Assembly: GCF_023055435.1 (NCBI RefSeq)
Contig: NW_025964212.1
Location: 1,922,001 to 1,986,000, forward strand
DNA from: Haliotis rufescens
Lineage: Eukaryota
DNA: 64,000 nt
Direction: 5' to 3'
Shown here: positions 46,241 through 62,195 of the stretch, piece by piece
Position numbering within the stretch: position 1 is the first letter of the stretch
Layout: the number at the start of each line of letters is the position of its first letter
Notes under the pieces: model-generated
Seen by the model: the letters and a program-made list of their open reading frames with translations, nothing else
Database searches by the model: none
Told to the model about the DNA's origin: nothing
Position numbers and translations under genes: made by a program

Positions 46241-49200
46241 CTATTTATCGCAGGGCTGGCTGCAGTCGTCGGAGGTGAGGCTGCTGTCACTGAAACGGGA
46301 AATCGAGAAATAAAGGTTCACCACGATACTCAAGTTTGTATTTCAATATTGAATTAGCTCTGGCATTTTGGTCATTTGAACAATTTAACCCCTCTTTCGT
46401 AAATATTCTTTCGTCATTATTACAATATATCATCAGGCGTATACATTGTAAGTTTGGAGTGAGTGAGTTTGATTGACGCCGCTTTTGGAAATATTCCAGC
46501 AATACCATTGGGGTGTATATTGCAGTCTACATCTATTTGCAGTGGAACCGTGTTCCCACCATCATTGAATTACGCGGAATCTAGGACGAATAATGTATGG
46601 CATGTAATCGGGCAGACATTTGTGTCGAATCATTACTCAAATCCCGGTAGAGACTGCCACAGATGGATTCACGAACTGTGACTATTGGGGATTGGGCGGA
46701 CAAAATGGTAGAAATGTGGGATTTAGTGTATCTTATCCCGTACTATTTCTGCTCCTTAGTTTTCATGAATTCTGCAGGCACAGGCCGACTTGTTATATCA
46801 GTTGATGAACAGACCGCAGGACCCACGGCGGGAGAGACTGCCATAGTTCGATTCATGGACTGAGACAAATTTGGATATGGTGAATTGGGAAAGGTACCCC
46901 ATACTATTACTGCTAATCCATTATGTTCTACTATTTGAATTCAACAGTTACAGAACAGAACAACTTTACAGAACATGAATTCTTCAGTTACAGAACTACT
47001 GGTATATCACTAGTAGAGAATACCACATTCTCATTAATTGAGACAAACGAATTAGGAGAAATGTTGGATTTAGTGTATATTATAATGTTACAGTTATATG
47101 AGTTGGTGATCAAACCAGTCACTAAGTCACACTGAAGTTTGAAGTTATATATCTTACGCGCAAAGCATGCGGTCCCGGATGCAGTTGTCACAGACGACGG
47201 AGCCGTTGGAGATGCAGAATGGACCGTCAAGGTAGCTGAAGCAGTCTGTGGTGGAACAGAAGAAGGCGCTCACACGAGCATCTGTTACCTGGTAGGCAGC
47301 TGGAGGTTGAAAAAAAGTCTGCTATTGGACTGCACTTACAACGATGATAAAGTCTTATTATAACACGTCCCATTTTAATTCTGGAAACCCAAAAGTCCAG
47401 AAACTCTACGGTCTTTGCCCAGTCTCGGTTAAAGGTATTTACAAAATTAAAGATGCTGTTTTCATGGGAACATACCAAGGAAGAAAAAATGAAAATTTTT
47501 TTGTTCAAAACTCAATATTTAGACTATGTCGCCCATGGGCAGGCCCATGGGCGAAGTCTGGCCCATGGGTAGGCCCATTCTATATAACTTAATTCAACGA
47601 TTTTATAGCGATATTGAAATATTTCGCCCATGGGCGAGAAAAAGGTTTGGCCCATGGGCGAGAATACGTTCCTTTACTCAAAACTCATGTTTTTGTTTCG
47701 CAAATACATTTAAATGTATTTATTCAAGTATCATGACACAAAATTTAACTCATTTTAACTTAATTCAACGATTTTATAGCGATATTGAAATATTTCGCCC
47801 ATGGGCGAGAAAAAGGTTTGGCCCATGGGCGAGAATACGTTCCTTTACTCAAAACTCATGTTTTTGTTTCGCAAATACATTTAAATGTATTTATTCAAGT
47901 ATCATGACACAAAATTTGAACTCATTTTAACTTAATTCAACGATTTTATAGCGATATTGAAATATTTCGCCCATGGGCGAGAAAAAGGCTTGGCCCATGG
48001 GCGAAAATATGTTCCTTTACTTAAATCTCATGTTTATATTTCGCAAATACATTAAATGTATTTATTCTAGTATCATGACACAAAATTTAACTCATTTTAA
48101 ATTAATTAAACTATTTTATAGCGATATTGAAATATTTCGCCCATGGGCGAGAAAAGGGTTTTGCCCATCAACTAACTGTGTGCAAAGTATATATTATTTT
48201 TCGATGGCATGTTTGAATCCTGCATTCTGATAGGTCGTTGGCGGTAAGGAATGTACGTTAGACCATGACGTTTGAAGACGATTGCATCAGCCCTACAATG
48301 TTTGAAAGTTCTTCTTTCCTAAACACTCTTTTACTGAGGTAACGTTGTGAAATAAATTCAAACTTTGACTGGACATTCTTTTGTACTTTTATACTATGTG
48401 AGTGACGCACGTGGAATGTGTTGTCTGCGGCTGTTGCACATGCATCAGGAACAGTTGCTAGTTGATCTTCACAATGCATGACACAAGGTTCCTTACAATT
48501 TACAATCGCTTGCACGTTTGGAAAATAGGCTGACGGTGATCACAGGAAATCTTGAATCATGAGGTGAGGTGAGGTGATATGGGGTTTAACGTCGCGTCCA
48601 AGATTATTGCACTTAAATAGCGACCTGCATGCATGTGTGTGTGTGGCTGCTTGTACTAGTCCGGACTGATGCCGATTTATGGTGCTAGCACACTGAGATA
48701 CCATGCCACAGTTTAACATGAATGCCCCACTCGGACACAGTATACTGACTCCGAGCCGACCAGTCCTTGTTTTAGCCCTTTAATGCCGAGCGCAAGACAG
48801 GGAAACAACAAGTACCATCTTTTAACGTCTTTTGGTATGATGGAATCTCGGACACATGCTTTTCGAAAAGAAAATTATTCACTACAATGCCCGTCCAAGC
48901 GTACACTAATTTCAATGTTGGTTCAAAATAATGCAGTTTGCATGTGAGCATTTAATCCAAAGTTTAAAAGAATGAACAGCTTTCAGACACACTGTCCCGA
49001 AGAATTATTTGTATGAAACTCCTAGTCACTGTGAACGAATTGCGCTTGGAAATATACTTCATAAACATGAATTGCGGGACGTTGGTACAGTTCATCGGAT
49101 TACAGGGAGAACTGCACGAACAGCCAATCTTTGGTTAATTCTTAGAAGAAGCAGGATTTGACCACAATTTCAAAACGTTTTCAAATCCTCCATAAAGGCT

Positions 49201-49377
49201 CAATGCACCTTTTGGTATCGTTGTTACTTGCAAAGTACAGTAATTTCAACCTAAATATTTCCAAATATTAACCAATATTAAAAGGGGAACGCATATGAAA
49301 TAGTATTTAAAACAAACAACAGAATCCAAAGACTGCTTACCGAATGCCATAAGAGCGAAGATGACGAGGACCTTCAT
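46241..49377 (-). CDS. Secreted 8-Cys Kazal-like peptide, copy 1 (75 aa)
   Basis: Exons 49377-49341 (MKVLVIFALMAF, donor gtaagc), 47299-47158 (acceptor ttttttcaacctccag, donor gtaaga), 46289-46241 (acceptor ttcccgtttcag, TAG). Protein MKVLVIFALMAFAAYQVTDA-RVSAFFCSTTDCFSYLDGPFCISNGSVVCDNCIRDRMLCADSSLTSDDCSQPCDK. TATAAAA upstream, AATAAA about 70 nt after the stop. Confidence 0.8.
47363..48191. mobile_element. Copy-1-specific intronic insertion containing ~171-bp tandem repeats with GCCCATGGGC palindromes
   Basis: Absent at the equivalent site in units 2 and 3 (unit 2 reads AGTCTTATTA-TA-TTATTTTT); internal units start near 47586, 47757, 47929, 48099. Confidence 0.7.
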
Positions 49378-59828: not shown

Positions 59829-62195
59829 CTATTTATCGCAGGGCTGGTTGCAGTCGGAGGAGGTGAGGCTGGTGTCACTGAAACGGGAAATCGAGAAATA
59901 AAGGTTCACCACGATACTCAAGTTTGTATTTCAATATTGAATATAACTCTGGCATTTTGGCCATTTGAACAATTTTAACCCTCTTTCATAAAAATTGTTT
60001 CGTCATTATTACGATACATCATCGGGCGTATAATTTTGGAGTGAGTGAGTTTGATTGACGCCGCTTTTGGAAATATTCCAGCAATACCATTGGTGTGTAT
60101 ATTGCAGTCTACATCTATTTGCAGTGGAACCGTGTTCCCACCATTATTGAATTACGCGGAATCTAAGACGAATAATGTATGGCATGTAATCGGGTAGACA
60201 TGTGTGTCGAATCATTACTCAAACCCCGGTAGAGACTGCCACAGATGGATTCACGAACTGTGACTATTGGGGATTGGGCGGACAAAATTGTAGAAATGTG
60301 GGATTTAGTATATCTTATCCCGTTCTATTTCTGCACCTTAGTTTTCATGAATTCTGCAGGCACAGGCCGACTTGTTATATCAGTTGATGAACAGACCGCA
60401 GGACCCACGGGAGAGACCGCCATTGTTCGATTCATGGACTAAGACAAATTTGGATAGGATGAATGGGGAAAGATACCCCATACTATTACAGCTAATTCAT
60501 TAAGTTCTACTACTTGACTTCAACAGTTACAGAACAGAACAACTTTACAGAATATGAATTCTTCAGTTACAGAACTACTGGTATATCACTAGTAGAGAAT
60601 ACCACATTCTCATTAATTTAGACAAACAAATTAGGAGAAATGTTGGATTTAGTGTATATTATGATGGTACAGTTATATTAGTTGGTGATCAAACCAGTCA
60701 CTAAGTCACACTGAAATTTGAAGTTATATATCTTACGCGCAAAGCATGCGGTCCCGGATGCAGTTGTCACAGACGACGGAGCCGTTGGAGATGCAGAATG
60801 GACCGTCAAGGTAGCTGAAGCAGTCTGTGCCGGAACAGGCGAAGGCGTTCATACGAGCATCTGTTACCTGGTAGGCAGCTGGAGGTTGAAAAAAAGGCTG
60901 CTATTGGACTGCATATTATTTTTCGATGGCATGTTTGAATCCTGCATTCTGATTGGTCGTTGGCGGTAAGGAATGTACGTTAGACCATGACGTTTGAAGA
61001 CGATTGTATCAGCCCTAAAATGTTTGAAAGTTCTTCTTTCCTATGCACTCTTTTACTGAGGTAACGTTGTGAAATAAATTCAAACTTTGACTGGACATTC
61101 TTTTGTACTTTTATACTATGTGAGTGATGCACGTGGAATGTGTTGTCTGCGGCTGTTGCGCACGCACCAGGAACAGTTGCTAGTTGATCTTCACAATGCA
61201 TGACACAAGGTTCCTAACAATTTACAATCGCTTGCACGTTTGTAAAATAGGCTGACGTTGATCACAGGAAATCCTGAATCATGAGATGAGGTGAGGTGAT
61301 ATGGGGTTTAACGTCGCGTCCAAGATTATTGCANNNNNNNNNNNNNNNNNNNNNNNNNNNNNNNNNNNNNNNNNNNNNNNNNNNNNNNNNNNNNNNNNNN
61401 NNNNNNNNNNNNNNNNNNNNNNNNNNNNNNNNNNNNNNNNNNNNNNNNNNNNNNNNNNNNNNNNNNNNNNNNNNNNNNNTCCGGACTGATGCCGATTTAT
61501 GGTGCTAGCACACTGAGATACCATGCCACAGTTTAACATGAATGCCCCACTCGGACACAGTATACTGACGCCGAGCCGACCAGTCCTTGTTTTAGCCCCT
61601 TAATGCCGAGCGCCAGACAGGGTAACAACAAGTACCATCTTTTAACGTCTTTTGGTATGATCGAACCCCGACACATGCTTTTCGAAAAGAAAATTATTCA
61701 CTACAATGCCCGCCCAAGCGTACACTAATTTCAATGTTGGTTCAAAATAATGCAGTTTGCATGTGAGCATTTAATCCAAAGTTTAAAAGAATGAACAGCT
61801 TTCAGACACACTGTCCCGAAGAATTATTTGTATGAAACTCCTAGTCACTATGAACGAATTGCGCTTGGAAATATACTTCATAAACATGAATTGCGGGACG
61901 TTGGTACAGTTCATCGGATTACAGGGAGAACTGCACGAACAGTCAATCTTAGGTTAATTCTCAGAAGAAGCAGGATTTGACAACAATTTCAAAACGTTTT
62001 CAAATCCTCCATAAAGCCTCAATGCACCTTTTGGTATCGTTGGTACTTGCAAAGTACAGTCATTTCAACCTAAATATTTCCAAATATTAACCACTATTAA
62101 TAGGGTACGCAAATGAAATAGTATTTAAAACAAACAACAGAATCCAAAGTCTGCTTACCGAATGCCATAAGAGCGAGGATGACGAGGACCTTCAT
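59829..62195 (-). CDS. Secreted 8-Cys Kazal-like peptide, copy 3 (75 aa)
   Basis: Exons 62195-62159, 60878-60737, 59877-59829. Protein MKVLVILALMAFAAYQVTDA-RMNAFACSGTDCFSYLDGPFCISNGSVVCDNCIRDRMLCADTSLTSSDCNQPCDK; splice sites and frame are intact. Confidence 0.8.

Follow-up and report, generated by a model that had tools for sequence, protein, structure and literature searches.

The stretch analysed here (the window) comprises 64,000 nucleotides of the red abalone Haliotis rufescens, contig NW_025964212.1, positions 1,922,001 to 1,986,000, and carries three copies of a gene for a short secreted peptide with eight cysteines; gene positions are given in window coordinates. By scripts run on the window, copies 1, 2 and 3 (B1, B2 and B3) lie on the minus strand at 46241-49377, 53750-56166 and 59829-62195. 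The initial annotation had proposed three intact three-exon genes, and the exons, GT-AG introns and open frames of 75 codons were all confirmed by script: each copy has coding exons of 37, 142 and 49 nucleotides (nt), a first intron in phase 1, a second in phase 2, and codons for eight cysteines. The phase-1 intron interrupts codon 13, about 8 codons ahead of a probable signal cleavage site that was placed by hydropathy and T18/A20 rather than by a dedicated predictor. That the peptides are secreted, as had also been claimed, is supported by a signal peptide followed by an 8-Cys mature region. A TATA box, recognized as a sequence motif only, stands about 80 nt 5' of each ATG, and an AATAAA lies 60-64 nt 3' of each stop. 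The features of the three copies, and of the units in which they are duplicated, are as follows.

49341..49377, minus: copy 1 (B1) coding exon 1, signal peptide codons 1-12; the product is XP_046361967.1
47158..47299, minus: copy 1 exon 2, end of the signal and Cys1-Cys6 (window sequence scripts)
46241..46289, minus: copy 1 coding exon 3, Cys7, Cys8 and stop (window sequence scripts)
56130..56166, minus: copy 2 (B2) coding exon 1; the product is XP_046361965.1
54658..54799, minus: copy 2 exon 2, with private K23, D24, V26, K30, A31 and G56; K23, D24, V26 and K30 are present in contigs of runs X1 and X2
53750..53798, minus: copy 2 coding exon 3 (window sequence scripts)
62159..62195, minus: copy 3 (B3) coding exon 1; the product is XP_048239471.1
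60737..60878, minus: copy 3 exon 2, with zero-difference contigs in X1 and X2 and loose ends at both exon borders
59829..59877, minus: copy 3 coding exon 3 (window sequence scripts)
49457..49463, 56246-56252 and 62275-62281, minus: TATA boxes of copies 1, 2 and 3 (motif only)
46171..46176, 53680-53685 and 59763-59768, minus: AATAAA signals of copies 1, 2 and 3 (sequence motif)
45763..52704, no strand: duplication unit 1 (gene, flanks and a TG-rich repeat); its identity to units 2 and 3 is about 92-97% by self-blast
53244..59331, no strand: duplication unit 2 (self-blast)
59328..64000, no strand: duplication unit 3, extending to the window end (self-blast)
47585..48168, no strand: tandem repeat of a 171-bp unit (3.4 copies), confined to intron 1 of copy 1 (repeat scan)

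These genes belong to a much larger array. The cluster had been placed at 46241..62195, which does hold three genes, but its true extent is 17 copies over 200 kb, of which 14 are intact and three lie within the window. When the animal's own genome was searched at E up to 10, 17 of the 19 matches fell on contig C434 at 1.82-2.02 Mb; the two off the array (E 2.6 and 6.7) were rejected as further copies, one being a chance match on inspection and the other containing an internal stop. Ten copies face the plus strand to the left of the window (clade A) and seven face the minus strand, B1-B3 within the window and B4-B7 to its right. The three broken copies are two plus-strand genes with deletions, one of which also lacks splice donors, and B5, which lacks exon 1; the array is of the birth-and-death kind. 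B7 and B1-B6 each group with a close H. cracherodii counterpart (P0012 and P0003), so their split likely predates the two species. Duplication units across the array are 6-10 kb long and 92-98% alike, in keeping with the recent amplification first proposed. Informative non-coding sites group the B copies in at least nine mutually conflicting ways, which indicates gene conversion or unequal exchange. A false duplication or a fault of assembly is judged unlikely, given contigs of both copy-2 type and copy-3 type in each of two runs and units with distinct junctions, although the non-coding difference between copies 2 and 3 is only 1.4%.

Putative mobile elements are interspersed with the array. 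Between B3 and B4, at C434:1987400-2000100, lies an element whose gene set suggests the Polinton/Maverick-like class: an integrase (rve, E 2e-8), a 1072-amino-acid frame with Rho_N repeats, a Pox_A32 packaging ATPase (E 2e-10) and more long frames. Three transposase frames, by eye Tc1/mariner-like, occur at C434:1826542-1827483, 1836411-1837211 and 1889763-1890827, and two of them were duplicated along with plus-strand units. Intron 1 of the peptide gene contains one copy of a dispersed repeat.

Transcript evidence comes from splice junctions in contigs of public sequencing runs, none of which is recorded as RNA. For B4, a sister copy of the window genes, contigs that skip both introns with CT..AC ends occur in all four runs of one study, and a poly(A) loose end follows 79 nt after the B4 stop in two of the four; the expectation that the genes are spliced and present in transcripts was thus borne out. 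Spliced B4 contigs reach depths of up to 25,000 against 12-139 for contigs retaining intron sequence, which suggests high abundance of the peptide transcript, although contig depth cannot rank genes. Within the window, exon 2 of copy 3 is matched by contigs with zero differences in runs X1 and X2, and the copy-2 bases encoding K23, D24, V26 and K30 were found in both of the organism-A runs mapped (again X1 and X2), so these four residues do not stem from faulty assembly. Exon 2 of copy 3 is likewise covered, with loose ends at its two borders, in runs X5 and X7 of two further organisms. By eye, the X1 loose end at window position 60737 leads into a spliced form of exon 3 that has Ile67 in an otherwise B-type sequence and matches no assembled copy, and X5 carries an A-type exon 3; the Ile67 form may be an extra polymorphism or a conversion from the plus-strand clade.

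The genes had been described as an undescribed family, a description that does not hold. By direct comparison, copies 1, 2 and 3 are identical to XP_046361967.1, XP_046361965.1 and XP_048239471.1, 'uncharacterized' H. rufescens RefSeq proteins, and relatives in H. asinina (AEW67133.1, Has-SLP) and H. discus hannai (UTD53614.1) bear the name schistosomin-like peptide (SLP). The copy 2 precursor is 73% identical to the former and 80% to the latter, and a profile matches Haliotis SLP at E 2e-40. All six intact B copies are identical to RefSeq proteins, whereas none of the eight intact A copies matches any of the 13 proteins compared. We regard the array, the gene structure, the splicing and the identity to SLP-named proteins as close to certain. 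An exon-2 search returned five candidates, all from Haliotis, and a profile search of 1.84 billion representatives matched two proteins, both from Haliotis, without reaching the schistosomins; as far as sequence search reaches, the 55-residue form is abalone-restricted. Pfam gave no real match for SLP proteins (10 proteins and 3 exon-2 translations); a RING-finger assignment was dropped as a sub-threshold Pfam match that we judged an artefact of cysteine spacing. Sequence searches of the PDB found nothing at E < 0.2, the presence of 9FDO and 9SLR in the searched copy being unconfirmed.

We classify these genes as abalone SLP, related to schistosomin but divergent and not canonical members of its family. 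Of three family hallmarks outside the cysteines, two are absent from all 18 proteins: position Cys2+2 (P1) is never Glu but Ser, Pro or Thr (Pro in 7 of 14 paralogs), and the residue after Cys1 is never Pro but Ser, His or Asp. The case for homology to schistosomin rests on the depositors' name, the spacing C4-x2-C5-x6-C6, the position of the phase-2 intron and residues shared by eye with Aplysia schistosomin (C2-F, F-C3-x-x-N-G, V-x-C4, D-C7 and P-C8). In all 18 proteins the signal peptide leads directly into an 8-Cys mature peptide with this spacing, and in all 14 intact copies a phase-2 intron in codon 60 separates Cys6 from Cys7, a junction also seen in run contigs. An intron at this place is a feature of schistosomins and conkazals, according to PMC13101452. 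SLP thus resembles the schistosomins of Lymnaea, Biomphalaria and Aplysia (PDB 9FDO and 9RT6) in being secreted and in its eight cysteines, their spacing and this intron; tandem copies in Pomacea and Biomphalaria are a further likeness. It differs in length (55 residues against about 79), in its inter-Cys loops (4,8,7,2,6,9,3 against 8,9,10,2,6,13,8 in B. glabrata schistosomin), in lacking the P1 Glu and the Pro after Cys1, and in that the profile search does not reach schistosomin. No Haliotis sequence is among the 17 listed in PMC13440164 or in seven supplements of PMC13101452.

The other relatives to be weighed are Kazal-type proteins. Conkazals (MKAVA conotoxins; conkazal-M1, PDB 9SLR) share the gene plan, the Cys framework and the lack of a propeptide and are mostly conserved with a few selected sites; they differ in being made in the venom gland, in having Glu at P1 and longer loops, and in numbering two paralogs per species. 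The conserved basic residue of the helix is Lys43 (Cys5+3) in conkazal-M1; SLP has Arg at Cys5+2 in 18 of 18 proteins and Asp at Cys5+3. Abalone are not known to have a venom gland. Kazal inhibitors (Pfam PF00050, MEROPS I1) resemble SLP in Cys3-x10-Cys, P-x-C-x-S-[DN]-G and a helix-type C-x6-C, but SLP has a probable fourth disulfide, Ser, Pro or Thr at P1 and no Pfam match. A Kazal/schistosomin-type fold is likely from these resemblances, and by homology the disulfides would be 1-6, 2-5, 3-7 and 4-8. If they hold, the variable N-terminal arm runs along the helix beside variable residue 56. An Atlas feature search with the full precursor placed Kazal clusters in its top three ranks (0.76-0.78, a lead only), and one with mature Has-SLP gave no usable match. 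The intact copies are uniformly acidic (isoelectric point 4.1-4.8, net charge -1.3 to -5.3, 14 of 14), with computed mature masses of 5.7-6.1 kDa. Abalone Kazal sequences proper also occur in the genome, as about 50 near-identical exons at roughly 520-bp spacing at C246:5225700-5252400, forming either one giant multi-Kazal gene or an array, and as a further cluster at C445:23.74-23.85 Mb.

The pairwise differences that first drew attention to the locus were reproduced. Copies 2 and 3 differ at nine coding nucleotides, all non-synonymous and exactly as listed (K/N, D/A, V/A, K/T, A/D, G/R, S/T, Y/D and I/N); their signal peptides are identical, and 44 of 3061 non-coding sites (1.4%) differ. Copies 1 and 3, said to show no synonymous change, indeed show none among 11 nt in 8 codons, one of them in the signal (F7L), and copies 1 and 2 show none among 15 nt in 12 codons; non-coding divergence is 3.7% and 3.2% in these two pairs. 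The variable motifs quoted around the cysteines, the eight fixed Cys and the fixed core were all correct too. The nine-of-nine result is weak alone because about 77% of sites are non-synonymous (P = 0.096 by chance, 0.054 with the local mutation spectrum). Faster divergence of exons than of introns, a further corollary of the initial reading, is significant for copies 2 and 3 (p = 0.009) and for copies 1 and 2 (p = 0.012) but not for copies 1 and 3 (p = 0.36), and the pairs are not independent.

Larger samples were analysed with our own codon models (F3x4; not PAML), using the 14 intact copies as the family set and B1-B4 plus B6 as the young clade, with B5 excluded as truncated. Across the family, purifying selection dominates: omega, the ratio of non-synonymous to synonymous rates, is 0.20 over 14 copies and 0.13 for the plus-strand clade A1-A7, and M2a is not significantly better than M1a (p = 0.07). 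Codons 32-55 vary at only 3 positions across the 18 proteins, and signal peptides differ between clades. A larger sample with dN/dS not above 1, which had been named as grounds for refuting the initial reading, is thus what the family as a whole gives, but the young clade does not. A toxin- or lysin-style hypervariable mature region, as initially suggested, is not supported as a trait of this family, whose low omega, near-fixed core and clade-specific signals set it apart from conotoxin-style families.

In the young B clade the proposal of positive selection fares better. Here 20 of 225 coding columns vary, every one non-synonymously (P = 0.005, or 0.026 when counted as 14 codon events), alongside 174 of 2804 non-coding columns. 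None of the 13 variable mature codons falls within the 24-codon core, codons 32-55 (P = 1.4e-4). On two trees omega is above 1 (p = 0.009-0.010, or 0.028-0.033 once double mutations are permitted); the window trio alone gives p = 0.03-0.045, and a two-ratio model, with branch proportions fixed from M0, puts the background at 0.126 and the foreground above 1 (p = 0.008). From the non-coding rates, 1.9 changes would be expected in codons 21-31, but 11 are found, spread over 7 codons (per codon P = 0.003); codons 56-75 have 11 changes in 6 codons against 3.2 expected (per codon P = 0.10), and the core has none against 3.7 expected. Throughout the clade, no residue changes in the loop with which Kazal inhibitors enter a protease. 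Copy 1 is 11 residues and copy 2 is 12 residues away from H. cracherodii P0003, against 5-6 for B3, B4 and B6, and by this larger distance two of the three window genes are accelerated. The clade tests give p of about 0.002-0.03, with gene conversion as a caveat, and we consider positive selection in the B clade probable.

The competing account is that there is no positive selection: duplicates would be relaxed at their flexible ends, and codon bias, gene conversion and double mutations would mimic an omega above 1. This account addresses selection only and is compatible with any function. It fits the conservation of the family and of the plus-strand clade described above, the 3 broken copies among 17, and a gain in fit of about 5 log units when double mutations are allowed. 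Several further results weigh on its side and against selection. Over the whole coding sequence the per-codon count does not exceed the non-coding rate (14 against 11.8, P = 0.30), nor does it in the mature region (P = 0.11). Part of the signal comes from a deficit of synonymous changes (0 against 4.5 expected, P = 0.011). Codon bias could be behind this deficit, the GC content at third positions being 0.73-0.78 against an intron GC of 0.35-0.43; the excluded B5 carries one synonymous change. The variable windows were picked after inspection of the data, and the tree-based tests are inflated because informative non-coding sites conflict among B copies; one M2a result, inflated by recombination, is given no weight here. 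Relaxation cannot, however, push a region above the neutral rate, as appears to have happened in codons 21-31 (7 variable against 1.9 expected). Moreover, synonymous sites do evolve in older pairs, the proportion of synonymous differences (pS) between A1 and A5 being 0.20 against 0.18-0.22 in introns, and positions 30, 56, 67, 70 and 71 vary in both clades and across species. On balance, relaxed constraint by itself appears rather unlikely to account for the pattern.

What the peptides do is a matter of more tentative judgement. We lean, at somewhat short of even chances, towards reading the SLP array as a set of acidic secreted 8-Cys peptides that serve as an abundant mucus-borne cue, with positive selection acting on the N-terminal arm and the C-terminal loop of the youngest copies. 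Amplification of the gene by unequal crossing-over and gene conversion would initially have served dose, with most copies remaining conserved; one surface would then have diverged in the newest copies, copies 1 and 2 carrying most of the change. The disulfides would hold the variable arm (22-31) against the helix bearing variable residue 56, so that a single surface changes. The peptides could perhaps be shed in foot or epithelial mucus and sensed by chemosensory receptors of other abalones, new variants altering the blend, a step we hold just as tentatively. A schistosomin-like trail-mucus protein of about 6.2 kDa from the pedal gland, Has-MAP-2, was reportedly described by Kuanpradit et al. 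in 2012 (FEBS J 279:437). [quoted passage not shown]

Protein pheromone arrays such as mouse MUPs and ESPs and plethodontid PMF are likewise tandem, abundant, secreted, stable and small, with gene conversion and selected surfaces; they have no homology to SLP, and the comparison is of how the systems work only. By that analogy one might go further and suppose that a Kazal-derived schistosomin scaffold has lost its inhibitory P1 and become a polymorphic signature code of trail mucus, a counterpart of the mouse urinary-protein system, with the newest red abalone copies driven apart so that broadcast spawners that live together can recognize species or individuals. We offer this extension, taken as a whole, as speculation with rather little probability.

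Several points count against a selected mucus cue. The link to Has-MAP-2 is tentative, the computed mass of Has-SLP (5.99 kDa, from R20) is below 6.2 kDa, and 'Has-MAP' had no match in the open-access literature. Both AlphaFold2 models came out at low confidence (pLDDT 47.2 and 46.7), and fold searches from them were uninformative. With hhalign the core aligned in register with the Kazal motif, but matches to the translations of 19 abalone Kazal exons, and to a WAP control, were at shuffle level; 89 of 100 shuffles reached the Kazal match. Because both models failed and the Kazal profile match was at shuffle level, the fold and the mapping of variable residues to one surface are unproven.

The strongest rival is defence at the body surface or in the haemolymph: as non-classical Kazal-type inhibitors, the peptides would block serine proteases of microbes or parasites (or bind another foreign target), amplified for dose and caught in an arms race. 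Conkazal-M1, a relative with a Kazal fold, inhibits subtilisin A with an inhibition constant of 1.1 uM (PMC13101452). Cys3 to Cys5 spans 10 residues, P-F-C-I-S-N-G resembles the Kazal P-V-C-G-x-D-G, the leading Atlas matches are Kazal clusters, though as a lead only, and with Cys2 as P3 the variable residues 29-31 would occupy P6-P4. Against this, the canonical P1 is Ser, Pro or Thr in every protein, Pro is a poor P1 in canonical inhibitors, and none of 10 proteins has a Pfam Kazal match. Inhibitor arms races usually strike P1 and its neighbours, as in ovomucoid third domains, whereas P2-P3' is fixed in the B clade. A cationic antimicrobial peptide is a still poorer fit, none of the 14 intact copies having the net positive charge expected of one. 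Defence seems to us unlikely overall, though far from negligible.

Endocrine and gamete-recognition roles fit less well than a cue or defence. Under the former, SLP would be a circulating modulator of growth or reproduction like Lymnaea schistosomin, with copies tuning the dose; Has-SLP varies through the spawning cycle and is raised in fast-growing juveniles (PMC3434067 and PMC6778792), but its low expression in ganglia (PMC3434067) and the doubts voiced about a neuropeptide role for B. glabrata schistosomin count against this. Nor would a hormone with one host receptor be expected to diversify over 14 paralogs, and we think the endocrine role improbable. Gamete recognition like that of lysin or sp18 is very improbable: abalone lysin and sp18 are classic cases of omega above 1, yet lysin is not a disulfide miniprotein, and no search found sequence likeness to such proteins. 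In PMC6778792, moreover, the H. laevigata gonad expressed only three other genes of the neuropeptide list.

Whatever the function, the array itself bears on a long-standing question, for the function of schistosomin has stayed open for more than 30 years according to both 2026 structure papers (PMC13440164 and PMC13101452). Core and Cys spacing are shared with the published Haliotis SLPs apart from one extra residue between Cys1 and Cys2, but the literature passages handle a single neuropeptide gene, and here there are 17 copies, two clades and a fast-changing subclade. Tandem schistosomin copies by themselves are not new, since PMC13101452 notes them in two snails. No description of an SLP array was found in the open-access literature, subscription journals lying outside the search; as far as open literature shows, what is new is the 17-copy array and, limited to one clade, an excess of amino-acid change outside the canonical loop. 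The array offers 14 natural variants of a shortened, 55-residue schistosomin form, in which the pattern of fixed and rapidly changing positions directs attention away from the canonical protease-binding loop. Primer-based work on 'the' SLP gene may sum several paralogs. If SLPs are trail cues, they would be relevant to aggregation and spawning success in farmed and depleted abalone.

Other features of the window lie apart from the peptide genes. Between the two SLP clusters, exon-like frames on the minus strand at 9791-37534 suggest one or two tandem receptor-like genes, although none of five such frames has a Pfam match; the segments in question, and two minisatellites, are these.

15730-16194 and 37133-37534, minus: Cys-rich modules of the receptor-like region (open frames)
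13757-14200 and 35906-36397, minus: paired beta-rich modules of the receptor-like region (open frames)
9791-10372, minus: tail with several tyrosine motifs, receptor-like region (open frame)
20244-21135, no strand: minisatellite, 35-bp unit x25.5, 92% matches (repeat scan)
30553-32814, no strand: minisatellite, 162-bp unit x14, 95% matches (repeat scan)

On the plus strand, 5858-7684 holds a 608-amino-acid low-complexity frame rich in Pro, Ser, Gly, Asp and His, with no Pfam match. Finally, a dispersed, SINE-like repeat family of 150-280 bp, possibly the abalone repeat named HaSE, occurs at 52630-52904 and in more than ten other places.

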